Part shown: piece after piece, positions 8,488 through 36,711 of the stretch
Numbering within the stretch: the first letter of the stretch is position 1
How the letters are laid out: each line of letters opens with the position of its first letter
Assembly (NCBI GenBank): GCA_014687725.1
Contig: GCA_014687725.1_4094.1
Origin: a phage
Reading direction: 5' to 3' (one strand)
Length of the DNA stretch: 64,000 bases
Made by a program: the position numbers and the translations under genes
The notes under the pieces: model-generated
The model's input: the letters and a program-made list of their open reading frames with translations, nothing else
The model's database searches: none
Told to the model about the DNA's origin: nothing

Positions 8488-8494
8488 AAATAAT

Positions 8495-10282: not shown

Positions 10283-10308
10283 GGCGGGATCAGTTCCCGC
10301 CTTTTTTA
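10283..10308 (+). terminator. rho-independent terminator
   Basis: stem GGCGGGA/TCCCGCC + T6. Confidence 0.8.
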
Positions 10309-10321
10309 TAGGACAAACAAA

Positions 10322-10576: not shown

Positions 10577-10629
10577 CAGTACTCAATTGTTTTAGTACTA
10601 TGTACATATACCAACACGGGAGAAACAAA

Positions 10630-10848
10630 ATGAAATTATCTAAAATCGAAAAGAAAACTATTGATGAAGCAGTTAAGCACGGTTATACCTTTCGTAATGA
10701 TTCACATTTTACCAATTTTCAACAAGGGTATCGTACTATTAAAAAACTCATTGACAAAGGTTTATTAGTTGAAGTCAATAACGGCAATGGTATTGAGTAT
10801 CAACCAACACAAGACGCATTTTATTTTAAGAAATATAATATTATCTAA
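10630..10848 (+). CDS. hypothetical protein (72 aa)
   Basis: ATG 10630 with SD GGGAGAAA; track start 10573 is the TTG of the promoter -35. Confidence 0.65.
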   Translation: MKLSKIEKKTIDEAVKHGYTFRNDSHFTNFQQGYRTIKKLIDKGLLVEVNNGNGIEYQPTQDAFYFKKYNII

Positions 10849-10905
10849 TTGACAGTACTCAAATGTTTTAGTACTATATGTACATACCAACACGGGGAAA
10901 ACAAA

Positions 10906-11148
10906 ATGATTACTTTAGAAAAACGTATCAAAGAAACTACATCGCTGGTGGAACTGTTAACAGTACTGAAATGCCGTACTACTCGGTTTAGTACACCGGA
11001 CTTTATTAATATGGTTGATGTTAACGGTCGTTATCGCATTGCAGTAGAACAAGGAACAGCGAAAGTATTCAGTACTAAAAACACTAAGGAAGTGATTCAT
11101 GCTGTAAGTGTTAAAAAAGTAGTTGCCATTGATAGTAAAGTACTGTAA
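10906..11148 (+). CDS. hypothetical protein (80 aa)
   Basis: ATG 10906; promoter/leader block 10849-10905 duplicates 10563-10629. Confidence 0.65.
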   Translation: MITLEKRIKETTSLVELLTVLKCRTTRFSTPDFINMVDVNGRYRIAVEQGTAKVFSTKNTKEVIHAVSVKKVVAIDSKVL

Positions 11149-11179
11149 GATAGTTTCATTAACTCAAGGAGAACATGCA

Positions 11180-11764
11180 ATGCGTAATTATACTAAATTC
11201 ATCCGTACCCTGTCAGAAATGGAAACCAACAAAGAGATCCTTTCAGCTTGTCGGTTAGCTGGTCTGGAGATCATCGGTGCGGGTTCTTCCCGTATTGTAT
11301 TCGCTTTAAATGATCGGTTAGTGATCAAGGTCGCGAATTGTGATGCGGGTGTAGAACAAAATGAAACTGAATGTAAGGTATGGAATTTTTTAGATTATGA
11401 CCGCCCTCAATTGAAACAGTACTTTGCAAAGGTGCATATGCATTTATGCGATCCTGATAATATGTTTATCGTTATGGATCGGTTGAGTACTGCAAGTAAA
11501 GGCAGTGTAAAGCACGTAAACGCGTGCAATGAATTAAAGTACAATATTAAACGTAATGCCATTGAACGCCAGCACCGCTTTGCTGATGCACTACAACACG
11601 TTGATGATACATTATCAACACTAACGATAAGAGATATCAGAAAACAGAATATCGGCCAGGATCGTAATGGCCTTATTAAAGTACTTGATTACGGTTTAAC
11701 CCGCAATATCTGGAATCAGTACTATAAAAAGCGTGATGTAGAAGCAAGTAAGGTAACACGATAA
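11180..11764 (+). CDS. protein kinase-like protein (eukaryote-type kinase fold)
   Basis: Gly-rich loop GAGSSRIVF, VIKVA lysine, catalytic-loop-like IRDIRKQN, DFG-like DYG; ATG with SD AAGGAG. Confidence 0.75.
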   Translation: MRNYTKFIRTLSEMETNKEILSACRLAGLEIIGAGSSRIVFALNDRLVIKVANCDAGVEQNETECKVWNFLDYDRPQLKQYFAKVHMHLCDPDNMFIVMDRLSTASKGSVKHVNACNELKYNIKRNAIERQHRFADALQHVDDTLSTLTIRDIRKQNIGQDRNGLIKVLDYGLTRNIWNQYYKKRDVEASKVTR

Positions 11765-11771
11765 AAAAGAT

Positions 11772-11862
11772 TAAAAAAGGGATTGACTCCGGTCAGTCCC
11801 TTTGCTATTATATATTCATTGAGAGATAACTCACTGACCCATAGGGTGCGGAAGTGTATCTA
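11772..11862 (+). repeat. R1 terminator-promoter cassette, copy C
   Basis: hairpin 11779-11800; TTGACT 11783-11788, TATTAT 11806-11811. Confidence 0.6.
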
Positions 11863-11984
11863 TTATATAAGTATTCAGTACTGAAAACTATTTTAAAAAA
11901 GTACTTGCAATGTACTTAGAATCAAGTATAATGTTTTACATAGAGAGGGGGAAATGGTTCTCCCTGGTAATAAGGAATAAAATC

Positions 11985-12206
11985 ATGACTACAATGACTT
12001 GCATTTACGCTTCCAATCTTCTGAATGATGCGGCCTTTAATGTTGATTCAGAATATCAATGTTATCGGGATGAAAATAAAAAAGTTTTTGTAGTTGATAA
12101 TAATGGTTTCCATATTGAATTACAATCCGGTTTCACTGGTGTTGATGGTAAATCAGTGTGGGGCGTACAGGATGATAAAGGCACATATCATTTTAAACGT
12201 AATTAA
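11985..12206 (+). CDS. hypothetical small protein (73 aa)
   Basis: ATG 11985 with SD AAGGAA; track start 11910 is inside promoter/leader. Confidence 0.7.
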   Translation: MTTMTCIYASNLLNDAAFNVDSEYQCYRDENKKVFVVDNNGFHIELQSGFTGVDGKSVWGVQDDKGTYHFKRN

Positions 12207-12290
12207 GTATTGACAAAGTATATCAGTACTGTATAATAGTTTACATCAAGGGGAGAATAGTTCTCCCCGATACTAAAAGGAAACAAAATT

Positions 12291-12563
12291 ATGTCCAGCT
12301 ACTCCGCTACTATGATCATTAAAGATATGAACGGTAATCCTACTTCTGCTGGTGGATCATTTGGAAACATTAATTTAGATGGTCGGTTATCCATGCAATC
12401 AGCCATCGATGCAGCGAAAGAAGTTTTTAAGAATGAATGTACTGTTAGTAAGCTGGATTATATGGGATTCGCTATCGAGAAAACTAATCGTTTTGTGAAC
12501 TACAAAAATCCACTGATGATTGATACTAACCTGAAAGCTAACGAAGTGGGGTACTTATTATGA
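12291..12563 (+). CDS. hypothetical protein (90 aa)
   Basis: ATG with SD AAAGGAA behind class I cassette. Confidence 0.7.
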   Translation: MSSYSATMIIKDMNGNPTSAGGSFGNINLDGRLSMQSAIDAAKEVFKNECTVSKLDYMGFAIEKTNRFVNYKNPLMIDTNLKANEVGYLL

Positions 12564-12751
12564 CAGTAGAAGAAGTTAAAAAAGTACTGGCAGTACTACG
12601 CTATCATAATCATTGCAAGGTGAAGAATGATCCTGATTATGTTGATTCATCCCTGGAGGAAGACACATTAAACGCAATAAGCCATATGCAAACATTAGCA
12701 AAGCGTATGACCGAAAAGAATAGACCGGACTATATCGGAAATAAAATTTAA
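12560..12751 (+). CDS. hypothetical small protein (63 aa)
   Basis: ATGA overlap with upstream stop. Confidence 0.6.
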   Translation: MTVEEVKKVLAVLRYHNHCKVKNDPDYVDSSLEEDTLNAISHMQTLAKRMTEKNRPDYIGNKI

Positions 12752-12837
12752 AAAGTACTTGCATTGTAGTTAGATTAACGTATAATGTTTTACATAGAGC
12801 GGGGGAACTATTCCCCCGCCAGTCCAGGAGATACACC

Positions 12838-13101
12838 ATGAACACTATCGAAATCACTATCAATGCACACGTATACGACAACGTAGTACTGCAAACTACT
12901 ATGACCGCTAATGATACCAGTACTTTGCGGAATACTGTTATTAGTGCCGTATGTGCCGCTATCGGTGATGTCGCCCTGGAAAATGCAGAACACATCAACA
13001 ACGGTTTCACTATGTGCAAACGTGATAACGCAAAACATATCATCGTAGAAGGTTACGGCGGTGTAGAATATAATCTTTATATGAAAAAAGTACTTGCATA
13101 A
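12838..13101 (+). CDS. hypothetical protein (87 aa)
   Basis: ATG with SD AGGAGA behind class I cassette. Confidence 0.7.
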   Translation: MNTIEITINAHVYDNVVLQTTMTANDTSTLRNTVISAVCAAIGDVALENAEHINNGFTMCKRDNAKHIIVEGYGGVEYNLYMKKVLA

Positions 13102-13168
13102 TAACTAAAACAAAGTATAATGTTTTGCATAGGGGGAGATATCCTCCCCCACTAAAAGGAGTAATAAA

Positions 13169-13393
13169 ATGGCTAACTTTGATGAACTGATGCGGGAAGT
13201 AGCTAACCTGGCAGAAGAGAAGAAATCATTCGATTCTATCTATAACACCGCTCACCGTGATTCAGTACTGGCATGTACTCAGGATCAAAAAGATGAACTA
13301 ATCGCCACATATCATGAAGCATGGAAGTACTACCGCCAATGGGAGAAAGAAGAAAGCGAGTCTACCATCAACGGCATCAATAATCTAATCTAA
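13169..13393 (+). CDS. hypothetical small protein (74 aa)
   Basis: ATG with SD AAAGGAG behind class I cassette. Confidence 0.7.
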   Translation: MANFDELMREVANLAEEKKSFDSIYNTAHRDSVLACTQDQKDELIATYHEAWKYYRQWEKEESESTINGINNLI

Positions 13394-13469
13394 AAGTTTT
13401 ATTTCAGTACTATTGACATAGCTTGATAGTACTGATGTAATAACTTTACTAACTACAAGGGGAAACATA

Positions 13470-13727
13470 ATGGAACAGTTCACACAATATCGGGTAAATC
13501 CTCAAGCTATGGCCTACGTAGAAGACCATAAAACGTTACCAGTACTAACACCAATTAAAGGCCATATCTATCGTGCAATGTCATGGAATACGGCCCAGGA
13601 TGGATATACTACCGCTGGCGTGGGTATGTATTGCGGGAATGGTGAATGGTTTGATCCAAATAATCCGGTAGCCATTGACAGTACTGAAAAAATGAAATGG
13701 GCCGACTACATCGAAGATATTTCATAA
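13470..13727 (+). CDS. hypothetical protein (85 aa)
   Basis: ATG with SD AAGGGGAA behind class II promoter (TTGACA 13413-13418). Confidence 0.7.
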   Translation: MEQFTQYRVNPQAMAYVEDHKTLPVLTPIKGHIYRAMSWNTAQDGYTTAGVGMYCGNGEWFDPNNPVAIDSTEKMKWADYIEDIS

Positions 13728-13816
13728 AACTATTTGACAGTACTAACCAGTAATGTATAATGTTTTACATAGAGCGGGGGAATAGTTCTCCCGCCAATAG
13801 TTTGGAGTAAAACATT

Positions 13817-14017
13817 ATGTCTATCGCTATCGCCCTGGTTGAAGTACTGAAAGAAGCTAAAGCCAACCTTATCGATGTACAGATTAAGGAATTACAAAAT
13901 GGTTTAATCGGCTGTACTTGTACCGCTGGTGGAGCGGCAGACTATCGGGAATTCGAATCACTTGAATCGATGGTCCGTTATCTTACCATGATCGTAGAAG
14001 ATTGGAGAATCATCTAA
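13817..14017 (+). CDS. hypothetical small protein (66 aa)
   Basis: ATG with SD TTGGAG behind class I cassette. Confidence 0.7.
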   Translation: MSIAIALVEVLKEAKANLIDVQIKELQNGLIGCTCTAGGAADYREFESLESMVRYLTMIVEDWRII

Positions 14018-14028
14018 CAAAAAAGAAT

Positions 14029-14115
14029 AAAAAAAGGGATTGACTCCGGTCAGTCCCTTTGCTATTATATACGCATAGACAAAAACTAGCCCACTGGGTG
14101 CAGGAGTGTATCTAA
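14029..14115 (+). repeat. R1 terminator-promoter cassette, copy D
   Basis: hairpin 14036-14057; TTGACT 14040-14045, TATTAT 14063-14068. Confidence 0.6.
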
Positions 14116-14263
14116 AATATATAGTTAATAACGGTGAGTAACTATCTGCTGGTGGGGTGAAAACTATTAATAAAAAAAGTATTGACAAAGTATATCAGTA
14201 CTGCAATAATGTATCTCGTAGGGCGGCAATGGTGCGACGGCCCACAAAGTTAGGAGATTCAAA

Positions 14264-14596
14264 ATGAGTACTTCAATCGCTATCGTTAAAGCTTTCATCC
14301 GTACCAATGTTTCATCTGTATTCATCGACGGTCTGGATCGGGAAGTAGAATACTCAATCATTATCGCACAGACTGCAAACGGTGCTCGGTATATCCTTAA
14401 TGATAGTGAAGCAAATCACTACTACTTCACTAAAGCTACTGGCTTTAAACGCATCGATGCTGACGTAGTATACACTAAGATGAATAAGCTGGTAGACAAG
14501 ATTAACGCGAAAGGTACTATCGATTTACAGTACTGGACCGAAACCGATCCAGAATATGGATCTCACCGCTACCTGAATCCAGGTATTAAAATGTAA
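14264..14596 (+). CDS. hypothetical protein (110 aa)
   Basis: ATG with SD TAGGAGA. Confidence 0.7.
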   Translation: MSTSIAIVKAFIRTNVSSVFIDGLDREVEYSIIIAQTANGARYILNDSEANHYYFTKATGFKRIDADVVYTKMNKLVDKINAKGTIDLQYWTETDPEYGSHRYLNPGIKM

Positions 14597-14685
14597 AAAG
14601 TACTTGCATAGTACTTAGAATCAAGTATAATGTTTTACATAGAGAGGGGGAAATGGTTCTCCCTCCTAAATTAAGGAGTTTTATC

Positions 14686-15087
14686 ATGACCTTCTCAATC
14701 AATTCCTTCGCTGACGTTTTAGTACTGGCTCGGACTTTCGGTAAAGATGCACTGGAGTACGCTGTAAGTAATGGTACTATCCAACCGGAACAGTGCCGCA
14801 TCATTGGAAACTGCAAACGTTGGGCGGTATCCAATACTATTGCACTGGAAAACTTCCACGATGGCAACAATGAATATTCTGTTGATGTAGTATTCGAAGC
14901 CGTTGATCTCGGCGGTATCTATAATACTAACCTGAATGATGTGCGTATCGTTCGCACGGGGTTCGGTGCTTATGATGTATCTATTCGTGAAGCTATGAAC
15001 ACCGGATACATTAGCAAGGACTTACTTGCTCACATCATGCAGCTGTGTACGGAACGTAACGAAGCACGCACTATCTTAGGACTGTAA
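14686..15087 (+). CDS. hypothetical protein (133 aa)
   Basis: ATG 14686 with SD AAGGAG; track start 14653 lies in leader hairpin. Confidence 0.7.
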   Translation: MTFSINSFADVLVLARTFGKDALEYAVSNGTIQPEQCRIIGNCKRWAVSNTIALENFHDGNNEYSVDVVFEAVDLGGIYNTNLNDVRIVRTGFGAYDVSIREAMNTGYISKDLLAHIMQLCTERNEARTILGL

Positions 15088-15155
15088 GCGTTACACATCA
15101 CCAAACATCATAGGCCGCCTTGTAGCGGCCTTAACTATATCAGGAGGGCATACAT

Positions 15156-15365
15156 ATGTTCTATACAGTATACAGCGTTCTAGGTACTATTGCAGGCGTA
15201 CATGATAACGTCAATGATGCTATGCGTACAGTACTGCAACAGGTTCCACTAAAGCCTAAGACCATTAAGCAGATGACAGCACGACTAACCAGGGCGACCG
15301 ATGGCGTGGAAGTATGGCAGGACTACGGGGATACACAGATAATCGTTAGCGTAACGAAGGATTAA
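15156..15365 (+). CDS. hypothetical small protein (69 aa)
   Basis: ATG with SD AGGAGGG. Confidence 0.65.
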   Translation: MFYTVYSVLGTIAGVHDNVNDAMRTVLQQVPLKPKTIKQMTARLTRATDGVEVWQDYGDTQIIVSVTKD

Positions 15366-15393
15366 TGCGTAAAGGGATCTAGTACTGATTCAG

Positions 15394-15459
15394 AAAAAAG
15401 TCAAGGCGTTTTTAAAATTATGCGTTAAAAAAATGCATAGGTAATCCCTTGACTTTTTT
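15394..15459. repeat. 13-bp perfect inverted repeat flanking a 40-nt AT-rich core
   Basis: AAAAAAGTCAAGG 15394-15406 / CCTTGACTTTTTT 15447-15459; in the 250-bp gene-free region before the array. Confidence 0.5.
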
Positions 15460-15556
15460 GAAATAAAAGGGATTGGACTATGGCAAAATGCGTAGGGGGC
15501 TAAAGGGCGGGTAACCTTAGCGACTTCGATAAAGGGGTATTACGAATAAAATGTTA

Positions 15557-15585
15557 TTGACTTTTTATATGAATCGTATAAAATA
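15557..15585 (+). promoter_or_regulatory. promoter at head of paralog array
   Basis: TTGACT 15557-15562, ~16-nt spacer, TAAAAT -10; then SD AAGGGAG. Confidence 0.5.
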
Positions 15586-15614
15586 TGATTGATATTAATT
15601 TTAAGGGAGTCCCT

Positions 15615-15812
15615 ATGCGTATTTTAACTAAAGAACAGCACCACGAAAGACTTATCAATAACATGGCTATGATAATGTATAAGTCCCATGACCGTGGTAT
15701 TGCCTATAAGCGTGAATTAATTATGGCACTATTCATTGGAACTAACTTTCAGGAAAGGTATGTCAACGATTGGATTTGGTATTTAATTGAAGATATAACG
15801 AGTAAACTATGA
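15615..15812 (+). CDS. family A paralog (LGTNYQ-motif small protein)
   Basis: motif FIGTNFQER; ATG 15615 with SD AAGGGAG (track start 15585). Confidence 0.65.
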   Translation: MRILTKEQHHERLINNMAMIMYKSHDRGIAYKRELIMALFIGTNFQERYVNDWIWYLIEDITSKL

Positions 15813-16009
15813 AAATGCGTATTTTAAATAAAGAAGAATATCAATCACTGTTACGTAAAAACTTCACAAAGATTTATAATACAGACACACACGTAGAACG
15901 AATGGAGTTATACCTTTTGATTACATTGGGAACAAACTATCAGGGTAGATGGGTGTGGCAATATATGGATACATTGAAAAATAAAATATTGTCCACGAGG
16001 AAACAATGA
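15809..16009 (+). CDS. family A paralog
   Basis: motif LGTNYQGR; ATGA stop/start overlap. Confidence 0.65.
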   Translation: MKMRILNKEEYQSLLRKNFTKIYNTDTHVERMELYLLITLGTNYQGRWVWQYMDTLKNKILSTRKQ

Positions 16010-16215
16010 AAACTATAACACGAACCCAATCATACGGTCTTATCTTGAAATACATGGACTTAATGGTGGATATCAGCAAAGACCTGCCTAAAACTGAAAT
16101 TGAAGTTGCAAGAGCAGAGATCCGCATGTTGGCTGTACTGAACACAAACCATCAGGAAGATTATGTTGAAGAATGGATTCGATTTTTAATAGAAGATATT
16201 AAGAGTAAACTATGA
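16006..16215 (+). CDS. family A paralog
   Basis: motif LNTNHQED; ATGA overlap. Confidence 0.65.
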   Translation: MKTITRTQSYGLILKYMDLMVDISKDLPKTEIEVARAEIRMLAVLNTNHQEDYVEEWIRFLIEDIKSKL

Positions 16216-16427
16216 TTATTATAGAAAACTCATATCAATATACTAAACGCATCGCTGCCAGACAACTTGAAATCCTCATAATATACGAAGAGACTTCTGA
16301 TTTAAACTTAGCCGAGGTATTGGAAAATGAAATACTTTTGGGTGCATTCTTGGGAACAGACTATCAGGAGTATTATGAGGAAAAGTATTTGTCATCTCTA
16401 GAGAAATACATCAGGAGCAAATTATGA
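16212..16427 (+). CDS. family A paralog
   Basis: motif LGTDYQEY; ATGA overlap. Confidence 0.65.
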   Translation: MIIIENSYQYTKRIAARQLEILIIYEETSDLNLAEVLENEILLGAFLGTDYQEYYEEKYLSSLEKYIRSKL

Positions 16428-16636
16428 TTATATTAACACCAGAAGAATATAAGAAACGTTTCAATTCTGTCCAGACTGAAATATTACTTATATACCTTTC
16501 AAATGCAGACCTTAACTTATCAAGGGCAATGGAGAAGGATTTACTTATGGGTGCATTTTTGGATACAGACTTTCAGGAGTATTATGTAGGGAAATACTTA
16601 ATTGAACTTCAGAACTACATTAAGAGTAAACTATGA
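16424..16636 (+). CDS. family A paralog
   Basis: motif LDTDFQEY; ATGA overlap. Confidence 0.65.
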   Translation: MIILTPEEYKKRFNSVQTEILLIYLSNADLNLSRAMEKDLLMGAFLDTDFQEYYVGKYLIELQNYIKSKL

Positions 16637-16860
16637 AACATTTAAGTAATATTGAGAAGATGAGAATTATCATTGATGCATTAAACAAATACGATACCCT
16701 TTTACAAATAAAAGGTTTAACTCGATTGGAACACAAGATAAACACCACCGATGTACGCATGTTGGCTGTACTGGGGACGAACTTTCAGGAAGAGTATGTT
16801 GTTGCACACATAGTTGCACTCACTAATTACATAATGGACAAATGTAATGAACATCATTAA
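16633..16860 (+). CDS. family A paralog
   Basis: motif LGTNFQEE; ATGA overlap. Confidence 0.65.
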   Translation: MKHLSNIEKMRIIIDALNKYDTLLQIKGLTRLEHKINTTDVRMLAVLGTNFQEEYVVAHIVALTNYIMDKCNEHH

Positions 16861-17071
16861 TAACTTTGAATACGAGGCCCGTGCTAAGAGTGCCAGAAAA
16901 AAAGAGAACACCATTTACTTCACTATGATGTACTTACAATGGACTGAAATTGAAGAAAAGGTTGCTGAAGTATGGATGTTGGAATTCATGGGGACGCAGT
17001 ATCAGAATAGGTTTGCGGGTGAGTATATCAATGTTCTTATGAAACAAATAGAAAGAAAGGAAAAGAACTAA
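16847..17071 (+). CDS. family A paralog
   Basis: motif MGTQYQNR. Confidence 0.65.
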   Translation: MNIINNFEYEARAKSARKKENTIYFTMMYLQWTEIEEKVAEVWMLEFMGTQYQNRFAGEYINVLMKQIERKEKN

Positions 17072-17229
17072 TGGTTTTCATTAACATATCTGACCAACTC
17101 GATACTAAACTAGAAGTCGAGCAGAGTGAGGGATGGATGCTGTACTTTCTTGGAACTTCTCATCAGAATTTTTATATCCATGAACACATAGTTGCACTCA
17201 AGAATTACATTATGGACAAATGCAAATGA
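17071..17229 (+). CDS. family A paralog, N-terminally shortened copy (52 aa)
   Basis: motif LGTSHQNF; C-terminus HIVALKNYIMDKC repeats that of the 16633-16860 copy; TAATG overlap; below track cut-off. Confidence 0.4.
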   Translation: MVFINISDQLDTKLEVEQSEGWMLYFLGTSHQNFYIHEHIVALKNYIMDKCK

Positions 17230-17483
17230 AATACTTAACACAAGATGAATATTCACTTAGAATTCGAAAGCTCACCCCAGAAGCAAGAGTAATCTACGAT
17301 GACCCCACCCTTACATGGAACCAAATGCGAGCTAAAGTTAATGAGCTATGGTTGCTGTACTTTATGGGGACTCAATATCAAGATAAGTTTTGCAAAGAAT
17401 TTGTCGATCAATTAATGAATGTTATACAGGATAAACTAGATGAATATTGGCTCGCAAAACATGAAGACTTTATCAGGAGTTGA
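17220..17483 (+). CDS. family A paralog
   Basis: motif MGTQYQDK. Confidence 0.65.
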   Translation: MQMKYLTQDEYSLRIRKLTPEARVIYDDPTLTWNQMRAKVNELWLLYFMGTQYQDKFCKEFVDQLMNVIQDKLDEYWLAKHEDFIRS

Positions 17484-17712
17484 GTATCAAACTGCCCTCT
17501 TCTCTCTTATTAACACCCTTAGAAAAAACAATGCATTACATGGTGCACCTGAAGTGGATGTTATCAACGGTGATGTTTATCTTATGAAATTCATTGGAAC
17601 AAACTATCAAGATCTGTTCATTCAACGATACTTGGCAGCATTAAGAAACCAAATCCAATATAAAACCCGTCAAGCCCAAAGAGAATGGAAGAGACAATGC
17701 GACAAAGACTAA
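17461..17712 (+). CDS. family A paralog
   Basis: motif IGTNYQDL; start uncertain (track 17440). Confidence 0.6.
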   Translation: MKTLSGVEYQTALFSLINTLRKNNALHGAPEVDVINGDVYLMKFIGTNYQDLFIQRYLAALRNQIQYKTRQAQREWKRQCDKD

Positions 17713-17945
17713 ATCACAAAATGTATTGTAAACTATTACAAACACTGGCACAGAAACACTATGACACCGTATCTGAAATATTACCCTATGATATCATGCG
17801 TTTAATTCATAGTGAGGCCGAGATGCTTGTACTGATGAGAGGGACTGATAAAACAGCAATAGCCAGATCGATTGAGCAATATATTGATGCACACTGCCAA
17901 CACATGAGAACCGAAATCTGGAGGAAAGAGAATGATAATCCTTAA
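17685..17945 (+). CDS. family A paralog (divergent)
   Basis: motif region MRGTDKTA; tandem position. Confidence 0.55.
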   Translation: MEETMRQRLNHKMYCKLLQTLAQKHYDTVSEILPYDIMRLIHSEAEMLVLMRGTDKTAIARSIEQYIDAHCQHMRTEIWRKENDNP

Positions 17946-18147
17946 TGAGTATCAGTATCATTGGAGGTTACAAACTATCAAATCAAAAGTGTATAGTATT
18001 GTGTTAAACAAATCTATTGCACAAGAGGACAAATGTGTTATAATAGCTGAAATGAAGTTGGGTGTATTCGTAGGGACAAACTATCAAAACATCTACACTG
18101 ACGTATTATTAAGTTCCTTACGTAACAAGGTGGTATCCAAAATATGA
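17932..18147 (+). CDS. family A paralog
   Basis: motif VGTNYQNI. Confidence 0.65.
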   Translation: MIILNEYQYHWRLQTIKSKVYSIVLNKSIAQEDKCVIIAEMKLGVFVGTNYQNIYTDVLLSSLRNKVVSKI

Positions 18148-18362
18148 GAAATTTACAAGGCTTTGAATACATCAGACTCCTGAAAACATGTGGAAGCAGA
18201 AGGAGAATGATATCAAGCGATAAGAGCATCCAAGCTAACCTTAAGCACGCACTAGTAACTGAACTCTATGTAGGTGCACTCTTAGGCACAAACTATCAAC
18301 AAATGTATGTAGATCTATGGATTGACGCTCTACAGAAAGAGGTTAAAAGTAAATGCAAATGA
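18144..18362 (+). CDS. family A paralog
   Basis: motif LGTNYQQM; ATGA overlap. Confidence 0.65.
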   Translation: MRNLQGFEYIRLLKTCGSRRRMISSDKSIQANLKHALVTELYVGALLGTNYQQMYVDLWIDALQKEVKSKCK

Positions 18363-18571
18363 TTAATTTAAGTAAAGACGAATTTTATGTTATACTGGCG
18401 AAAACTTATCCAGCACGTAAGGCCGTTTATGATAGTCACATTATTGAACCCTCAAAGAAGTTGATTTTAGTAAATGAGATAAAGATGCTTTCAGTCTTAG
18501 GAACAAACTATCAAGAGAATGCTGTACTGATGTTAATTGATGCCCTCCAGCGAGAGGTTAAACGTAAATGA
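18353..18571 (+). CDS. family A paralog
   Basis: motif LGTNYQEN. Confidence 0.65.
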   Translation: MQMINLSKDEFYVILAKTYPARKAVYDSHIIEPSKKLILVNEIKMLSVLGTNYQENAVLMLIDALQREVKRK

Positions 18572-18798
18572 AAATGATTCATTTAACTTACCATGAATAT
18601 CAAAAACGTTTAAATGCATCCAGAGATATAAGGATTCAAATATTCAATAACAAAAGATTGAAGCCTGATATCAGAAAAATCAAAATTATAGAAGCAGAGT
18701 TATGCAACTTTCTAGGGACCAACTATCAGGCAGGTAAGGTAAAAAACTATCTTAGAGAACTAATGAATAGTATTGAAAATAAATGTAAGGGTAATTAA
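18568..18798 (+). CDS. family A paralog
   Basis: motif LGTNYQAG; ATGA overlap. Confidence 0.65.
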   Translation: MKMIHLTYHEYQKRLNASRDIRIQIFNNKRLKPDIRKIKIIEAELCNFLGTNYQAGKVKNYLRELMNSIENKCKGN

Positions 18799-18799
18799 C

Positions 18800-19039
18800 A
18801 TGAAAATGATTAAATTATCTCAAGCAAAATATAAAGAACGCCTGGTGAAAATTGCACCTGGACTTAATGAAATCCATCACGGAGAAGTCATTAAACACGG
18901 AAATAAGATGATTATGAAACTTGAGTTAAAGGTGGGTGCATTCATAGGAACAAACTATCAGGAGTATTATGTAGATGAATACATAATCGCACTTAAGAGA
19001 TACATTGGAAGAAAACTATATCTACAAACTAAAGAATAG
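18800..19039 (+). CDS. family A paralog
   Basis: motif IGTNYQEY; ATG 18800 right after upstream TAA (track TTG 18773). Confidence 0.6.
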   Translation: MKMIKLSQAKYKERLVKIAPGLNEIHHGEVIKHGNKMIMKLELKVGAFIGTNYQEYYVDEYIIALKRYIGRKLYLQTKE

Positions 19040-19068
19040 TATTGAAAATAAATGTGAGGTTGATGAAC

Positions 19069-19332
19069 ATGCAAATGATCAATTTAAGTAAAGATGAATA
19101 TACCGAGCGTATGACAAAAATTACGCACAAACGTAATACAATCTATCACAACCCAGAAATTCAACACAGTAAGAAAATGATTATGATGCGTGAGTTAAAG
19201 ATGGGTGTATTCTTAGGAACAAACTATCAAGATACAGAAGTAAATCGCTTAATCGCGGAGTTACTACTGGAAATCAGAGGTAAGCTGTACTTTCATCAAA
19301 TGACCCAACCACTGAGGTGTACTAAGAAATGA
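19069..19332 (+). CDS. family A paralog
   Basis: motif LGTNYQDT; start uncertain (track TTG 19042). Confidence 0.6.
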   Translation: MQMINLSKDEYTERMTKITHKRNTIYHNPEIQHSKKMIMMRELKMGVFLGTNYQDTEVNRLIAELLLEIRGKLYFHQMTQPLRCTKK

Positions 19333-19544
19333 TCAACATCACATTGCAAGAAAGATTCATCCGAATCAACTATGCAATTACCAAATTAGATGCTACTATA
19401 GGATTCCAAAGTCTACCATACAAAACCAGATTGTTATTAGAGTGTGAAGCTAAGTTGGGTGTACTGTTAGGGACGCAACACCAACAACGATATGTGGAAA
19501 TCTGGATTGACCTTTTAACCCAAAATATATATGAGAGAATGTAA
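19329..19544 (+). CDS. family A paralog
   Basis: motif LGTQHQQR; ATGA overlap. Confidence 0.65.
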   Translation: MINITLQERFIRINYAITKLDATIGFQSLPYKTRLLLECEAKLGVLLGTQHQQRYVEIWIDLLTQNIYERM

Positions 19545-19775
19545 ATGCAAAATGAAATGATATACTTAACGAATGAAGAATTTCAAGAGAAGATGTTAAA
19601 AACCAAAAACATTACTCTTAAGTTCGTTCCAAATCAATCAATATCTGAAGTATCTGCAAATGTATTGTTTCAGAAGCTACCATACGTTCTTGGAACTGAT
19701 AAACAAGAATTTATGGTTCAAAATATGATTGAACATCTTATAATGAGTATTAAGGAAAAAGTTAATGCAAAATGA
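19545..19775 (+). CDS. family A paralog (long-N variant)
   Basis: motif LGTDKQEF. Confidence 0.65.
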   Translation: MQNEMIYLTNEEFQEKMLKTKNITLKFVPNQSISEVSANVLFQKLPYVLGTDKQEFMVQNMIEHLIMSIKEKVNAK

Positions 19776-20019
19776 AATGATATACTTAACCTATAATGAA
19801 TACGTCGAGAGATTAGTTCGTGCCAAGAGATATACCAATAAACGTCCAATTGACCTAAACCAAACCCCAGCAGAAAGGAGTGCAGAAGTATTATTCCAAT
19901 CACTACCATATCTTCTGGGAACTGATAGACAAGAGGAATATGTTGCACGTATGATTAGATATCTTAAAATCACTATTAAGGAAAAAGTAAATGCAAATGA
20001 AATACTTAACAGACGATGA
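19765..20019 (+). CDS. family A paralog (long-N variant)
   Basis: motif LGTDRQEE; first 33 nt identical to the 19545 copy. Confidence 0.65.
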   Translation: MQNEMIYLTYNEYVERLVRAKRYTNKRPIDLNQTPAERSAEVLFQSLPYLLGTDRQEEYVARMIRYLKITIKEKVNANEILNRR

Positions 20020-20242
20020 GTTAAAAGAACGACTAATTAAATCAAGAAAACATACAAATCAACTTCCAAACGACACAAACAAGTCTCCAGCGGAAAGGAG
20101 TGCAGAAGTTTTATACATTCAACTCATGTACTTTCTTGGCACTGACAGACAAGAGTATTACATTGAAAGTATGCTTCGATATCTTAAATTCTCTATAAAG
20201 GAAAAGATACATGATCAAGTATTTAAAAATCCTAACAGTTAA
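19991..20242 (+). CDS. family A paralog (long-N variant)
   Basis: motif LGTDRQEY. Confidence 0.65.
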   Translation: MQMKYLTDDELKERLIKSRKHTNQLPNDTNKSPAERSAEVLYIQLMYFLGTDRQEYYIESMLRYLKFSIKEKIHDQVFKNPNS

Positions 20243-20453
20243 TGAATATCATAAGATTGTAATGAAAACTAATAGTGCTTACGCTAAAAAATCAAACCCA
20301 AAGTACATACTGGAACACACATTTGAAGAACGTCAATTAGCTTTAGTTGAAGCAAAACTTCTTGCACTATTAGGAACAAACTATCAGGAAGAATACAATA
20401 GAAAACTAATATACCTTTTAACTAAACATATAAGAAAAAGAAAAAATGCATGA
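20211..20453 (+). CDS. family A paralog
   Basis: motif LGTNYQEE. Confidence 0.65.
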   Translation: MIKYLKILTVNEYHKIVMKTNSAYAKKSNPKYILEHTFEERQLALVEAKLLALLGTNYQEEYNRKLIYLLTKHIRKRKNA

Positions 20454-20680
20454 AACACTTGACAGATGATGAACATGGGCTTATAGTAATGGATGTAATC
20501 AACATCGAATACAAAAAGTTGATACGCTATCGTTGTTATGAAGATAAGCAACTCGTTCTAGCAGAACAGAAGTTGTTTCGACTCTTAAACACAAACTACC
20601 AAGCACAATACGAAGAATCGTATATGTACCTTTTGGCGAGGAAAGCAAAAAGAGATTATGAAAATTTTAAGCAAAGGTGA
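20450..20680 (+). CDS. family A paralog
   Basis: motif LNTNYQAQ; ATGA overlap. Confidence 0.65.
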   Translation: MKHLTDDEHGLIVMDVINIEYKKLIRYRCYEDKQLVLAEQKLFRLLNTNYQAQYEESYMYLLARKAKRDYENFKQR

Positions 20681-20879
20681 TTCAGTAATATTACTTATAG
20701 AGAGTTCAAGTAAATTCTTAAACATAACACTGTCTGATATAGATGAAGATGACAAAGAAGTACTGAGAGCAGATTTAAGAGTACTGTTACATATCGGAAC
20801 AAACCTACAAGAAGAATATGTAGAGTGCTACATCAATGAACTTAAAGAATCAGTACTGAGAAAATGCAAATGCAAATGA
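20658..20879 (+). CDS. family A paralog
   Basis: motif IGTNLQEE. Confidence 0.65.
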   Translation: MKILSKGDSVILLIESSSKFLNITLSDIDEDDKEVLRADLRVLLHIGTNLQEEYVECYINELKESVLRKCKCK

Positions 20880-21097
20880 AAATCATTACCGATGTAGAAT
20901 ACCTAACAATCATAAATGGACTGTTTTTGAAGCTCTTCGTCATTAACACATCAGATATACCAGATATGGATAAAATTATTAAGAGAAATGAAGTCTATGT
21001 TCTAGCTACCCTTGGAACGAACTATCAAGAACACGACATTAAAGATTATATTAATACACTTAAACGAGCTATTGAACTAAAATGCCAAAACCACTAG
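20864..21097 (+). CDS. family A paralog
   Basis: motif LGTNYQEH. Confidence 0.65.
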   Translation: MQMQMKIITDVEYLTIINGLFLKLFVINTSDIPDMDKIIKRNEVYVLATLGTNYQEHDIKDYINTLKRAIELKCQNH

Positions 21098-21297
21098 GAA
21101 CAGCAGAATACATTGAACTCATGGGATTACACTTCTCATCCTTTCAGAAACTTATGCGAGAATCAAAGAATGATTTAGAATATACCATCAGAGGTTCCGA
21201 TTTAAGAATGCTTCTCACCCTAGACACAGATTCCCAAGAGCGATTTGTCAATGAGCATATTAGAGCACTTTTAATGGAAATTAAAAGTAAACTATGA
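21082..21297 (+). CDS. family A paralog
   Basis: motif LDTDSQER. Confidence 0.65.
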   Translation: MPKPLGTAEYIELMGLHFSSFQKLMRESKNDLEYTIRGSDLRMLLTLDTDSQERFVNEHIRALLMEIKSKL

Positions 21298-21509
21298 AGA
21301 TAATATCAAACCAAGAGTACTTGGCACTATTCAGGAAGAATAATCACAAATATATGGCACTTGATTCAAGAACTGATATAAGTGAACTTGAAAAAAATCT
21401 TTTGCGTTCAGATATGATAGTACTGACACTCTTAGGAACACAGCATCAAGAGAGAACTGTTAATTCATACATAGGTATTCTTATACAGATAGTACAGGAA
21501 AAGATATGA
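21294..21509 (+). CDS. family A paralog
   Basis: motif LGTQHQER; ATGA overlap. Confidence 0.65.
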   Translation: MKIISNQEYLALFRKNNHKYMALDSRTDISELEKNLLRSDMIVLTLLGTQHQERTVNSYIGILIQIVQEKI

Positions 21510-21727
21510 GAATCATAACACAACAAGATATTCTTAAGTTCACAAGGGTTCATGCATCTGAATTTGATGCTATATTATCAAAAAGTTACAATGACCCTTA
21601 TACACAAGATGTACATTACAGTGAATTATGGATGTATATACTTTTAGGTACAAATAAGCAAGAGCAAGCCGTACAGAAGTATTTGACAGCTTTACGTGAT
21701 GCTACTGCTAATGGAGTATGTGTTTAA
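21506..21727 (+). CDS. family A paralog
   Basis: motif LGTNKQEQ; ATGA overlap. Confidence 0.65.
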   Translation: MRIITQQDILKFTRVHASEFDAILSKSYNDPYTQDVHYSELWMYILLGTNKQEQAVQKYLTALRDATANGVCV

Positions 21728-21728
21728 T

Positions 21729-21971
21729 ATGAAAGTACTGACAGAACTAGAAATGTATCATAGATTTAATAAGTACTATCATTTACTTAAGCCTATACAG
21801 AGGATTAAATGTCCATTTGAAGAGAAACAGGTTTTAATCTATGAGCACAAGTTCTTTGTATCATTAGGTACAGATCAACAAGAGTACTATTTGACGTTGT
21901 ACTTGATTACATTAATAGATTTAATTCACTATAAAACCAAACAAGCTAATAAAGAGAAATATGAAAACTAA
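21729..21971 (+). CDS. family A paralog
   Basis: motif LGTDQQEY; ATG 21729 just after upstream TAA (track 21696). Confidence 0.6.
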   Translation: MKVLTELEMYHRFNKYYHLLKPIQRIKCPFEEKQVLIYEHKFFVSLGTDQQEYYLTLYLITLIDLIHYKTKQANKEKYEN

Positions 21972-22305
21972 TATACAACTCAAGGTATATAAATCATTTG
22001 AACATACATATATCAAAAGTAGTCTATGTAGAGATGTAATGGATTACAAGGGTAAGCCATTCACAATTACCTATGATTCTTATGTTAGTGATTTATATAT
22101 ATCATTTGTTAATTACGAAAATAAAATATACAAGCACGTTGATATTAAAGATTTAAGTACTTTATCACCAGAGGAATACTTTCAGGAATCATTAGTATGG
22201 GATTTAGAGTTTCCTATGCCATTAGTACATAAGATGATAGTACTAATGAAAGAATCTAAACAGGAGCCTAATGGTGATTATGAAGAACACACAGTTGAGT
22301 ATTAA
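21961..22305 (+). CDS. family B paralog (EEYFQ-motif protein)
   Basis: motif LSPEEYFQESLVWD. Confidence 0.65.
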   Translation: MKTNIQLKVYKSFEHTYIKSSLCRDVMDYKGKPFTITYDSYVSDLYISFVNYENKIYKHVDIKDLSTLSPEEYFQESLVWDLEFPMPLVHKMIVLMKESKQEPNGDYEEHTVEY

Positions 22306-22675
22306 AAGTACTGATAATACTAAGAGTTATACAAGCTCAAGTACTGTGACAATCGAAGTGAATTCTATTAATGCTGGTAATGCAGTAGATAAGTTCTTTA
22401 TTGCTCAAGGGTACAGGAAAGATATTCATCAATATTGTTCAGTATATGGGGAGTACAATTCTACTGAAGATATAATTTATTGGTCAACACATCAAGATTA
22501 TATAACTAAAATTGGCGTTCCAGATGTTAGTACTTTATCTGAAGAAGAATACTTTCAGTACAGCTTAGTACATGATGTACCTATACCTTTAGGGTTAATC
22601 AAGGGTATGCAGGAAGAGGTTCATAAGCTTAAATCCATGAGTTCAGGTACTTTCATTAGAACAGTGCAATACTAG
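22271..22675 (+). CDS. family B paralog
   Basis: motif LSEEEYFQYSLVHD; start uncertain (alt ATG 22280). Confidence 0.6.
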   Translation: MVIMKNTQLSIKSTDNTKSYTSSSTVTIEVNSINAGNAVDKFFIAQGYRKDIHQYCSVYGEYNSTEDIIYWSTHQDYITKIGVPDVSTLSEEEYFQYSLVHDVPIPLGLIKGMQEEVHKLKSMSSGTFIRTVQY

Positions 22676-22676
22676 C

Positions 22677-22705
22677 TTGACAGTACTTTTCATTACTGAT
22701 ATAGT
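22677..22705 (+). promoter_or_regulatory. sigma70-like promoter inside array
   Basis: TTGACA 22677-22682, 17-nt spacer, TATAGT 22700-22705. Confidence 0.55.
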
Positions 22706-22734
22706 ACACTAACGTTAATCATAGGGTAAAAATT

Positions 22735-22980: not shown

Positions 22981-23297
22981 AATTTAATATAGCAAAAACA
23001 TCGAGTATATGTATTTTTGGTTATGCAGAAGAGTTAGGTGATATTGACATTCTTTTGTACAAAAAGGATGGTGTTATGCATTTCAAGTACCAGGATGAAG
23101 AGGCAGACAATTATCCTTTACCTAATTTAGTACAAATGCAGGAAGATGAATTATTCCAGTACAGCTTAATATACGACATTGATATTTGCACGATGCCAGT
23201 ACTAATTAGTATTCAAAAAGTGATGCTCGATATGTATGATAAGCTAATACAAGGTACATCAGGGAGAATCATTGAAATCGATATACAAGACAATTAA
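22977..23297 (+). CDS. family B paralog
   Basis: motif MQEDELFQYSLIYD; ATG 22977 in ATGA overlap (track GTG 22971). Confidence 0.6.
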   Translation: MKFNIAKTSSICIFGYAEELGDIDILLYKKDGVMHFKYQDEEADNYPLPNLVQMQEDELFQYSLIYDIDICTMPVLISIQKVMLDMYDKLIQGTSGRIIEIDIQDN

Positions 23298-23490
23298 TCA
23301 AGAATGGAAGACCCAAAAGTACAGGGAATTCAACAGGAATTTTACAAAAGATGCATTGAATTTAAAAACAACAGAGTTTGATATGTTTATTTTTCTTGGA
23401 ACACGTTCACAAGAACAATTTGTTCATTATTATATAAATTCGTTGCGAACGGAGATAGTATGCAAAACACAGGGTATTATAAAAAGGTAA
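23272..23490 (+). CDS. family A paralog (island inside family B block)
   Basis: motif LGTRSQEQ; TTG start with SD GGGAGA. Confidence 0.55.
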   Translation: MKSIYKTINQEWKTQKYREFNRNFTKDALNLKTTEFDMFIFLGTRSQEQFVHYYINSLRTEIVCKTQGIIKR

Positions 23491-23726
23491 ACCAATATTT
23501 GTACGCTACAAAGTACAGGGATTTTTGTTTAAAGGGTGGTGATGAAGATTTTTCTTTGCGATTATCAGAATTTAATCTGTTATTTTATCTTGGTACAAAA
23601 GAACAAGAAGAAATGGCACAGAAATTTATCAAGCACCTTGTACAAAAAATTAATATGCAAATTTTGATGCTTAAGATACAGAATGAGATAAATGAATATG
23701 AATCCAGAAATAGTTCAGGATCTTAA
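23460..23726 (+). CDS. family A paralog (island)
   Basis: motif LGTKEQEE; ATG with SD GGAG. Confidence 0.6.
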   Translation: MQNTGYYKKVNQYLYATKYRDFCLKGGDEDFSLRLSEFNLLFYLGTKEQEEMAQKFIKHLVQKINMQILMLKIQNEINEYESRNSSGS

Positions 23727-35813: not shown

Positions 35814-36346
35814 TGAAAGTTAACATCAATGACTTTGATGCATTACAAGATTTATCAAAAAAGATTCGCACCATTGTACCAGTACTCAAAAAATGCAGTA
35901 CTGGTTTAATCGATCCTAGTACTGTTGTTAATGAGAAGTACAATTTTCATTATGTATTACAGGGTACTGGGGCATTCCAGAAGTGTGAGGTGCGTGAGAC
36001 ACACGTAATTGATACATCATTGTTTTCTATTGGTGCACCTGTGTCGAATAATACTATTTTCCTAGACAACGCTGGAAATATTCAACAATTAACATTTAAG
36101 AAAAGGAAAAAGAACAATAACATTGGTGTGTATGCGATGAAGTGGGGTCAACCTGATTTGAAGCGTGAAATTCACATCCCTAAGTACAATTACAATGCAT
36201 TTGACGAACAGTGTTTTCAACTATCGTGTACTGACCCTGACTATGCTATCATTCAGTTCTATATGGAATTGCAGATAGCATTTAACAGTAATTTGTATAT
36301 TAACTTATTGGCGATTAACATTGATGAAGTATTCAAAAACATTTAA
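35813..36346 (+). CDS. family B paralog (divergent)
   Basis: motif FDEQCFQLSCTD; ATG 35813 (track GTG 35810). Confidence 0.55.
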   Translation: MKVNINDFDALQDLSKKIRTIVPVLKKCSTGLIDPSTVVNEKYNFHYVLQGTGAFQKCEVRETHVIDTSLFSIGAPVSNNTIFLDNAGNIQQLTFKKRKKNNNIGVYAMKWGQPDLKREIHIPKYNYNAFDEQCFQLSCTDPDYAIIQFYMELQIAFNSNLYINLLAINIDEVFKNI

Positions 36347-36542
36347 TCGAATTGAATACATGAGAACTGTGAGTGCAGTGTGGGACATATGGTTCACTAC
36401 TAAACCAAAAATGGATTACCATGACTTTAAGCTCTTGTTCTTCGTTGGCTCTAACAAACAGGATGTTGCAATGAAGGGTTATATTCAGCACTTACAGGAA
36501 CTAATCCAGAAGAGAATATATGAAAATAATAGACCAAAATGA
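36324..36542 (+). CDS. family A paralog (island inside family B block)
   Basis: motif FFVGSNKQDV; ATG 36324 (track TTG 36321). Confidence 0.55.
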   Translation: MKYSKTFNRIEYMRTVSAVWDIWFTTKPKMDYHDFKLLFFVGSNKQDVAMKGYIQHLQELIQKRIYENNRPK

Positions 36543-36711
36543 CATTGCTAAACTATTCAATATATATTCTACTAGAATGATGCAAACAGACTCATATAGT
36601 ACTGAATTCAAAGAGTTGAAAGTCCTGATGTACTTGGGAACCCAATATCAGGAACAAGTTATTTTGGAATATATTAATTCGCTGAAGAAGGATATCCGTT
36701 ATGTACGATGA
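36520..36711 (+). CDS. family A paralog (island)
   Basis: motif LGTQYQEQ. Confidence 0.6.
   Translation: MKIIDQNDIAKLFNIYSTRMMQTDSYSTEFKELKVLMYLGTQYQEQVILEYINSLKKDIRYVR

Follow-up and report, generated by a model that had tools for sequence, protein, structure and literature searches.

A tandem array of 29 divergent paralogous genes adjoins the terminal repeat of an Asteriusvirus-type jumbo coliphage

Families of tandemly arranged, divergent paralogs lie by the terminal repeats of African swine fever virus (ASFV; MGF110, MGF360 and MGF505) and of poxviruses (the terminal host-range families), and roles in host range and immune evasion have been demonstrated for them. In phages, clusters of small orphan genes are found at the terminal redundancy of SPO1 (gp37-gp60) and T5 (the pre-early genes), and these genes are expressed first. 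Arrays of small paralogs have also been noted in jumbo phages. For Bacillus phage G, Iyer et al. (2021, PMC7824862) described an expansion of about 35 Zn-ribbon copies and suggested that these act as structural DNA-binding proteins or as specific transcription factors. Hua et al. (2017) noted tandem arrays of 121Q and phage G in the context of the capsid ratchet (PMC5646251), and about 10% of the proteins of Klebsiella phage RaK2 are paralogs (PMC3622015). Here we analysed a stretch of 64,000 nucleotides of phage DNA (NCBI GenBank assembly GCA_014687725.1, contig GCA_014687725.1_4094.1), hereafter the window, in which positions 15615-21971 of the plus strand hold 29 head-to-tail genes of a single family of small proteins (family A, 52-87 amino acids). 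This array is an uncharacterised, lineage-specific tandem expansion of a kind known in jumbo phages, with an unusual scale and a newly defined position at the boundary of the terminal repeat.

As in phage G and 121Q, we are dealing with a long tandem array of small jumbo-phage paralogs attributed to tandem duplication. Phage 121Q even belongs to the same genus and carries a family A array with 23 copies; its array was mentioned by Hua et al. in one sentence without coordinates or analysis (PMC5646251), and this sentence may refer to a second family, family B, that follows family A in the window. Beyond this sentence on tandem arrays in 121Q, our literature search brought up no account of family A. 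Unlike the arrays of Hua et al., the family A members are not 'very similar' (mean identity 25%), and unlike the phage G proteins they are predicted to be three-helix bundles and not Zn ribbons.

The source phage is an Asteriusvirus-type jumbo coliphage. Positions 15500-22000 are 97.4% identical to Escherichia phages vB_EcoM_G17 (G17) and Sharanji and 82-94% identical to PBECO4, phAPEC6, UE-S1, 121Q and Salmonella relatives, and the genes under the matching stretch in the relatives are all annotated as "hypothetical protein". The chain of open reading frames (ORFs) continues on the plus strand without a break from 15585 to 21971, and the opposite strand holds short ORFs only. The annotation of G17 also lists 29 coding sequences (CDSs) with nearly the same coordinates; the gene starts that we use are the family-consistent start codons from a start-site analysis. 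To evaluate family membership, we scored each member with a leave-one-out hidden Markov model (HMM) and compared the result with 200 shuffles of the same member. The scores of 28 of the 29 members were between 34 and 70 bits, whereas those of the shuffles did not exceed 12.8 bits, and on these sequence scores it is statistically certain that these 28 genes are paralogs. Member 11 scored 10.6 bits (best shuffle: 9.3 bits); it is a divergent family A member with the same predicted fold, in an AlphaFold prediction that leans on the family alignment. A six-frame HMM scan of the window returned the 29 array genes, four island copies and one small out-of-frame C-terminal remnant, and no family A match on the minus strand or in the rest of the window.

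An earlier first-pass annotation, made from the letters of the window without database searches, had described 29 tandem same-strand paralogs of 52-91 amino acids and four island copies within the family B block. The ORF listing, the G17 CDSs and the alignment with HMM scores agree with the tandem run (28 members certain, one divergent), the upper size limit had to be lowered to 87 amino acids, and each of the four islands was matched by the HMM (39, 25, 22 for a partial match, and 43 bits). In the alignment of the 29 members, the core motif that it had proposed is retained in the Thr (29/29), the Gln (28/29), the Gly (25/29) and the [LIMV] residue before the Gly (29/29), but its positions 4 and 5 are looser than claimed, [NDQS]-[YFHKRLSQ]. 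The N-terminal pattern likewise exists, though less strongly than described (M1, L4 in 72%, T/S/N5, E8 in 69% and Y9 in 61%). A Leu further downstream is present in 28 of 29 sequences, and the family consensus reads M-x-x-L-x-x-x-E-Y ... L-G-T-N-x-Q-E-x-Y-V-x-x-x-I-x-x-L-x-x-x-I-x-x-K.

The pattern of conservation is that of protein-coding genes. Nucleotide identity between the paralogs at codon positions 1, 2 and 3 was 41.6, 51.2 and 34.1%, respectively, with 28-32% expected from composition. Comparison of the 406 paralog pairs at the DNA level produced 18 high-scoring segment pairs (HSPs), all weak and on the same strand and none inverted. The pooled ratio of nonsynonymous to synonymous substitution rates (dN/dS) of the orthologs was 0.36 for 121Q, 0.32 for ph0011, 0.38 for Ecwhy_1 and 0.31 for PBECO4. 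When 205 ortholog pairs were pooled by alignment column, the pN/pS ratio was 0.39 overall, and the column of the invariant Thr contained 0 nonsynonymous and 45 synonymous changes. In eight related phages the ORFs of the array are intact. From the codon-position identities, the dN/dS values of 0.31-0.38 and the same-strand HSPs we conclude that family A is a protein-coding paralog family. The first-pass annotation had named an RNA-level repeat as the alternative; the missing minus-strand HMM match, the codon-position pattern and the fact that Rfam had 0 matches in the window exclude it.

To obtain a structural model, we used AlphaFold2 (AF2) with an alignment that consisted of the 29 paralogs only. 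Member 1 was predicted with a predicted local distance difference test (pLDDT) value of 97.7 and a predicted template modelling (pTM) score of 0.81, with helices at residues 6-24, 29-39 and 46-64 and a one-residue beta bridge from residue 2 to Thr43. No transmembrane segment was predicted in family A, and the model allows us to predict with confidence that the family A proteins are soluble three-helix bundles. The conserved columns comprise the hydrophobic core, which is heptad-like, and M1, L4, T5, E8, Y9, E34, G42, T43, N44, Q46, L57, I61 and K64; the conserved polar set is T5, E8, Y9, E34, G42, T43, N44, Q46, E47 and K64, and it includes the G-T-N-x-Q turn at helix 3. Judging from the up-down-up topology and not from coordinates, this polar set would for the most part come together at a single pole of the bundle. 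The other columns are mostly polar and hypervariable, with near-maximal entropy (3.3-3.6 bits). The isoelectric points (pI) vary from 4.5 to 9.9 (above 8 in 15 of the 29 proteins) and the net charges from -6 to +9.

Database searches connected the family only to other phage proteins. Apart from member 11, all members matched phrog_4148 (28/29, best E = 9.3e-27), and 16 matched phrog_28039; therefore, the family is already catalogued as a phage protein cluster. Both PHROG entries are of unknown function and come without structure or context, and the array layout, its adjacency to the terminal repeat, the fold and the association of families A and B are absent from these entries. Searches of Pfam-A, NCBIfam and PADLOC gave only single-member chance matches (E of at least 5.8e-4), with no family matched by more than one member, the profile search of PDB sequences gave scattered chance matches only, and the search of BFVD returned family members only. 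Foldseek found nothing significant in the PDB. The best match was the three-helix bundle of staphylococcal Sbi-IV, which resembles family A, as do Efb-C and the protein A domains, in size and up-down-up three-helix topology; being non-significant (E = 3.6, TM score 0.52), this match reflects the resemblance of a common fold and not homology. Three-helix modules of the Sbi-IV/Efb-C and protein A type serve in nature as diversifiable binding scaffolds.

Four other assignments were considered and rejected. Ribbon-helix-helix proteins (Arc/MetJ/CopG) have an N-terminal beta-strand, two helices and a G-x-S/T/N turn, which the G-T-N turn of family A resembles. However, the model has three helices with the motif between helices 2 and 3 (around residue 43), its beta structure is a one-residue bridge, and there was no Pfam or PDB match to such proteins. 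A helix-turn-helix was rejected on the AF2 topology and the lack of such matches, and a Zn ribbon of the phage G type on the Cys content (0-3 per member, no conserved Cys column). The idea that the aromatic-Gln motif might be a protease site of the 3C or tobacco etch virus (TEV) type was dropped as well, since in family A helix 3 starts with this Gln and the next residue is mostly Glu.

The position of the array became clear from the comparison with G17. Window positions 12500-15500 align with 18-3018 and positions 15500-22000 with 343667-350167 on the minus strand of G17, whose position 1 falls at window position ~15517. From the mapping of both stretches it follows that G17 has a 20,668-bp direct terminal repeat (DTR), whose inner boundary lies at window position ~15517. 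The terminal repeat of Sharanji determined by PhageTerm has the same size as that of G17 (PMC11895373), and in the record of vB_Ec-M-J the DTR is annotated at 1-21525 and the first family A gene starts at 21624. In the window, the inner boundary is 40 nt upstream of the -35 element of a promoter-like site and 98 nt upstream of the first array gene. The surrounding intergenic region (15366-15614) may hold the signal that defines the end of the repeat, and its part at 15470-15550 is locally GC-rich (47% vs 34% for the window). An 8-bp inverted repeat (AATCCCTT ... AAGGGATT) with a 15-nt loop and without a T-run after it is located at 15441-15473, just inside the terminal repeat.

At this boundary the gene architecture switches. 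The DTR part of the window (1-15500) contains 35 gaps of at least 50 nt and at least 10 perfect TTGACA-N16/17-TATAAT promoters, about one per small gene, all directed inward on the plus strand, whereas in the array 29 or more genes share one promoter-like site. This resembles the modules of SPO1, T5 and PA5oct insofar as small orphan genes at or next to a terminal repeat are read inward from sigma-70-type promoters (PA5oct: PMC7318152), but the genes of those modules are mostly unrelated and individually promoted, and the array is a single family behind a single promoter. We therefore rejected the array as an SPO1/T5-type module inside the repeat: it is located immediately beyond the DTR and is free of internal gaps, and it is window 1-15.5 kb that fits this description instead. 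In PA5oct, a related phage dependent on the host RNA polymerase, most genes of the DTR are transcribed early and at high levels (PMC7318152), which supports an early expression of the array by analogy only. The position at the terminal-repeat boundary and the occurrence of the family outside the genus are context that the first-pass annotation had missed.

The array genes are tightly packed. Neighbouring genes overlap at 24 of the 28 junctions, and at 27 the spacer is at most 1 nt. The stop/start overlap noticed earlier is thus common, but the ATGA or TAATG form that had been given for almost every junction accounts for only 12 of them (up to 15): we counted 11 ATGA overlaps (up to 14 if the second ATG of MQM/MKM starts is used) and one TAATG. 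A further 12 junctions overlap by 10-32 nt, three have a spacing of 0-1 nt and one has a gap of 29 nt. A Shine-Dalgarno (SD)-like, purine-rich core of four bases is present 4-18 nt upstream of 22 of the 29 starts (regional background: 23%), and these cores lie within the codons for the conserved C-terminus, rich in Lys and Glu, of the gene before. Between 15620 and 22000 no gap reaches 50 nt, and the array contains no convincing plus-strand terminator. The gap-free unit passes 21971 through two family B genes, and the first gap of at least 50 nt is found at 22676-22734; judging by the gene layout, the transcription unit probably reaches at least 22675.

The only gap upstream of the array contains a promoter-like site (15557-15584), located about 40 nt into the unique region. 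Its -35 element is conserved in six of seven aligned phages, and the -10 element is TAAAAT or TATTAT. In PBECO4 (19498-20003) an extra gene of 366 nt is inserted between the boundary region and the array, and TTGACA-17-TATGAT directly precedes the first family A gene. Thus, the single promoter proposed by the first-pass annotation has a conserved candidate with a 10/12 match, but an 11/12 match also exists inside the array at 20459-20487, which qualifies the proposal that the run has no internal promoter; of plus-strand terminators, none was convincing. Since the -35 element of the internal site (TTGACA at 20459) is formed by conserved Leu-Thr codons, TTG ACA, we regard this site as probably a by-product of coding. 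All promoter calls come from consensus scans, in which a match is not evidence of function, and the 58 promoter-like matches in the region are no excess over the 53 expected from shuffled sequence. To summarize, the sequence fits the architecture of an operon with translational coupling, and a single transcript of the array is plausible. We found no Asteriusvirus transcriptome in the literature.

The comparison with related phages proposed in the first-pass annotation revealed that the copy number indeed varies, from 23 to 29 in eight genomes. In the main array we counted 29 copies for the window, G17, PBECO4 and JP4, 27 for ph0011 and Ecwhy_1, 25 and a fragment for UE-S1, and 23 for 121Q. The differences are insertions or deletions of whole genes (159-459 nt) with breakpoints at gene junctions. 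Compared to G17, the members are 94-100% identical with the exception of members 9 (67%) and 10 (71%), a mosaic divergence; from the alignment, the stretch 17220-17712 with these two members looks like a local cassette replacement between near-identical phages, and similar single-cassette replacements are seen in other phage pairs. Within the window, the paralogs have a mean amino acid identity of 24.8% and a maximum of 56.6%. Neighbouring members are more similar to each other (30.8%) than non-neighbours (24.4%; permutation p < 1e-4), a difference that tandem duplication would predict. A recent amplification of the genomic accordion type was rejected: there are no near-identical copies (amino acid identity of 57% at most and 25% on average, 18 weak DNA HSPs). 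In the set of 205 ortholog pairs, no alignment column was above a pN/pS of 1.01, and the variable positions were near-neutral (pN/pS 0.5-1.0).

The most recent duplication is that of members 16 and 17, which share 75% DNA identity over 219 nt, including an upstream 'LKINVRxxNM' frame (18743-19229). The out-of-frame remnant of a family C-terminus (18987-19088) spans the junction of these two members and overlaps both of them and the 29-nt spacer. The array of phage CMSTMSU (103704-114774; record UNVERIFIED_ORG) gave 17 partial HMM matches, and its breakage most likely reflects sequencing frameshifts and not biology.

Family A has a narrow distribution. An exhaustive profile search of 1.84 billion cluster representatives retrieved only 85 family A clusters (at 50% identity), all of 52-122 amino acids, 34 of which share at least 50% identity with a protein of the window. 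Weak matches led to two lineages outside the genus: Klebsiella phage RaK2/K64-1 (Alcyoneusvirus) has 12 family A copies in groups of 1-3 over 45 kb (RaK2 225000-270000), and an uncultured phage contig with 29% GC (L011, Logan SRR34023385) has 12 copies in 20 kb. One distant member used as a query found nothing in IMG/VR or in the phage collection, and a search of 5,426 complete E. coli genomes gave no match to the array. Many family members are encoded on draft-assembly contigs of ~350 kb that bear the label Escherichia coli; these contigs resemble phage genomes that ended up in the assemblies of isolates.

Family B is represented by 33 HMM matches between 21925 and 42931 (54-188 amino acids), and family A also has 33 in the window; the order is 29 A, 3 B, 2 A, 19 B, 2 A and 11 B. 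Family B matches only PHROGs of unknown function. Its motif E-E-x-x-F-Q-x-S, with invariant Phe-Gln, is superficially similar to a TEV/3C protease site. The aromatic-Gln-Glu motif is common to both families, but family A as a truncated relative of family B was rejected at an hhalign probability of 0.2%. The two families are also interleaved in RaK2 (12 A and 21 B in 45 kb) and L011 (12 A and 17 B in 20 kb), neither of which has DNA similarity to the window. From the scattered copies in these two phages it follows that the long unbroken array is specific to Asteriusvirus and that the association of A and B is older; the gene orders suggest an old linkage of the two families. A third small family with five tandem paralogs of 88-103 amino acids is located at 57359-58768. 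The features of the array and its surroundings are compiled in Table 1.

Table 1 Genes of the family A array, island copies and nearby elements (positions in the window; bits for array members, leave-one-out HMM score)
Feature	Position	Strand	Remarks
Member 1	15615..15812	+	65 aa; SD AAGGGAG upstream; 48 bits; AF2 pLDDT 97.7
Member 2	15809..16009	+	48.6 bits
Member 3	16006..16215	+	60.3 bits
Member 4	16212..16427	+	51.0 bits; 51% identical to member 5
Member 5	16424..16636	+	65.8 bits
Member 6	16633..16860	+	61.2 bits
Member 7	16847..17071	+	51.6 bits; counterpart with at least 70% cover not found in ph0011, Ecwhy_1, EcMJ
Member 8	17071..17229	+	52 aa, short N-terminus; 48.8 bits; absent from 121Q, ph0011, Ecwhy_1, EcMJ
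Member 9	17220..17483	+	alternative start 17226; 69.0 bits; 67% aa identity to G17 copy
Member 10	17461..17712	+	alternative start 17440; 41.8 bits; 71% aa identity to G17 copy
Member 11	17697..17945	+	R-G-T-D-K-T, 6-residue insertion; 10.6 bits; no phrog_4148 match; AF2 three helices, pLDDT 86.6
Member 12	17932..18147	+	59.3 bits
Member 13	18144..18362	+	69.2 bits
Member 14	18353..18571	+	alternative start 18359; 61.2 bits
Member 15	18568..18798	+	66.3 bits
Member 16	18800..19039	+	70.1 bits; 75% DNA identity to member 17 unit
Member 17	19069..19332	+	70.4 bits; preceded by 29-nt spacer, the sole sizeable one
Member 18	19329..19544	+	45.4 bits
Member 19	19545..19775	+	53.9 bits; this 220-nt unit absent from PBECO4 and JP4
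Member 20	19765..20019	+	60.2 bits; 57% identical to member 19
Member 21	19991..20242	+	64.3 bits
Member 22	20211..20453	+	50.1 bits
Member 23	20450..20680	+	34.2 bits; codons 3-6 His-Leu-Thr-Asp yield TTGACA at 20459
Member 24	20658..20879	+	58.5 bits
Member 25	20864..21097	+	alternative starts 20870, 20876; 62.1 bits
Member 26	21082..21297	+	43.8 bits
Member 27	21294..21509	+	58.6 bits
Member 28	21506..21727	+	46.5 bits
Member 29	21729..21971	+	38.6 bits; 3' end overlaps first family B gene (start 21961)
Two family B genes	21961-22305, 22271-22675	+	extend gap-free unit
Family A island copy	23272..23490	+	72 aa; HMM 39 bits (match 23248-23487)
Family A island copy	23460..23726	+	88 aa; HMM 25 bits (match 23382-23723)
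Family A island copy	36321..36542	+	73 aa; HMM 22 bits (match 36279-36539); C-terminal half only, model positions 38-71
Family A island copy	36520..36711	+	63 aa; HMM 42.6 bits (match 36505-36708)
Intergenic region before array	15366..15614	+	249 bp; holds DTR inner boundary (~15517); 88.6-100% identical in 9 related loci
Sigma-70-like promoter	15557..15584	+	TTGACT-16 nt-TAAAAT, 10/12 match
Promoter-like site in gap after family B pair	22677..22705	+	TTGACA-17-TATAGT, 11/12 match
Promoter-like site inside array	20459..20487	+	11/12 match; -35 within member 23

What could such an array do for the phage? The ASFV and poxvirus families are like family A in being tandem divergent paralogs by a terminal repeat with isolate-variable copy numbers and cassettes and with individually dispensable members. 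The array shares the traits of such terminal multigene families: its start 98 nt past the DTR boundary, its 23-29 copies, and its whole-gene insertions and deletions and cassette replacement. It differs from the viral families in having no sequence or fold relation to them, and they are not organised as one translationally coupled operon. By analogy with these families and with the SPO1/T5 modules, and considering the conserved scaffold with its variable remainder and the mosaicism among isolates, we tentatively propose that the array is an early, translationally coupled operon that encodes diversified binders of host or defence factors, a possibility that we would not yet call probable. In this model, the host RNA polymerase would transcribe the array early as one polycistronic mRNA continuing into family B. 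Translational coupling would yield roughly equimolar paralogs and keep the long AT-rich message covered by ribosomes, guarding it against premature termination. With its own surface on the shared scaffold, each paralog would recognise a separate host or defence factor, or a different allelic variant of one factor, and the array as a whole would serve as a battery in host takeover, in anti-defence or in host range. Whole-gene cassettes would be gained, lost and swapped via recombination at the similar gene junctions.

Several observations weigh against the binder proposal. Neither a target, partner or phenotype of family A nor transcript or proteome data for any Asteriusvirus turned up in the literature. 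No column has a dN/dS clearly above 1 (maximum 1.01); therefore, an arms race is not demonstrated, and the variable positions could simply drift. The paralogs are old (mean identity 25%) and not recently amplified. On the structural model, the conserved polar pole could mean one common ligand rather than many targets. The promoter matches the consensus at only 10 of 12 positions, with promoter-like sites at chance frequency, and the constant co-occurrence with family B could mean that both families share a function that has nothing to do with the host. A broader version of the binder proposal is more doubtful still: families A and B together might be the phage counterpart of the terminal multigene families of ASFV and poxviruses, that is, a cassette-exchanging binder repertoire at the terminal-repeat boundary that is expressed first, as one coupled operon, and sets which hosts and defences are overcome.

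The association with family B can also be read differently, with family A proteins acting together with family B, for example as its adaptors, chaperones or regulators, in one two-family system and not on the host by themselves. The interleaving of A and B in three lineages without mutual DNA similarity is in line with such a partnership, as are the equal numbers of HMM matches in the window (33 each) and the gapless entry of the array into family B. On the other hand, the families are largely segregated in the window and not arranged as A-B-A-B, and their counts differ in RaK2 and L011. Neither a profile similarity between A and B nor a fusion was found, and the co-location could just mark a shared hyperplastic region. 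We consider this partnership unlikely.

According to the genome-capsid ratchet, the array might be largely dispensable filler, with duplicates of little individual function kept to fill a larger capsid. It is exactly in this setting that Hua et al. (2017) cited the tandem arrays of 121Q and phage G (PMC5646251), and the variation between 23 and 29 copies, the absence of members from some phages without obvious consequence and the nearly neutral variable positions (pN/pS 0.5-1.0) are what filler would look like. However, all 29 ORFs are intact in all good-quality genomes, the dN/dS of 0.31-0.38 and the scaffold residues indicate strong constraint, and the SD-like sites and overlapping junctions are maintained. 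Moreover, the paralogs are recognisable down to ~25% identity and the family persists across genera. Taken together, filler is a rather unlikely explanation.

Family A might also have expanded as small regulators that bind nucleic acids, be it as specific transcription factors or as structural DNA-binding proteins. This would parallel the interpretation given for phage G (PMC7824862), and the small size, the helical fold and the pI above 8 of 15 of the 29 proteins agree with it; we regard it as improbable. Packaging into the virion, as internal head, inner-body or DNA-coinjected proteins, is hardly to be expected: phAPEC6 does have an inner body, and gel-based mass spectrometry easily overlooks small proteins, but none of its 62 virion proteins is in the range of 7-11 kDa expected for the array products (0/62; PMC7247149), and the array adjoins the early, sigma-70 promoter-rich DTR far from the structural genes. 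Finally, the notion that the ORFs are untranslated and their periodicity is that of a DNA- or RNA-level repeat has practically no chance of being correct and is effectively refuted by conservation in the order of codon positions 2 > 1 > 3 with dN/dS below 0.4, by the few weak same-strand and no inverted HSPs (18 in 406 pairs) without minus-strand HMM or Rfam matches, and by the confident AF2 fold obtained from a paralog-only alignment.

Most of the genome of jumbo phages consists of orphan genes, and here two orphan families fill ~27 kb. Family A offers a clean test case, with 29 divergent variants of one scaffold in one compact unit and with natural cassette differences between phages. As the first unit of the unique region after the terminal repeat, the array makes it testable whether such an expansion is an adaptive repertoire for anti-defence or host range or mere filler, and how phage genomes grow. 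Should the proteins prove to be binders, the array would be a natural library on a minimal scaffold; if it is dispensable, this would provide experimental support for the capsid-genome ratchet.

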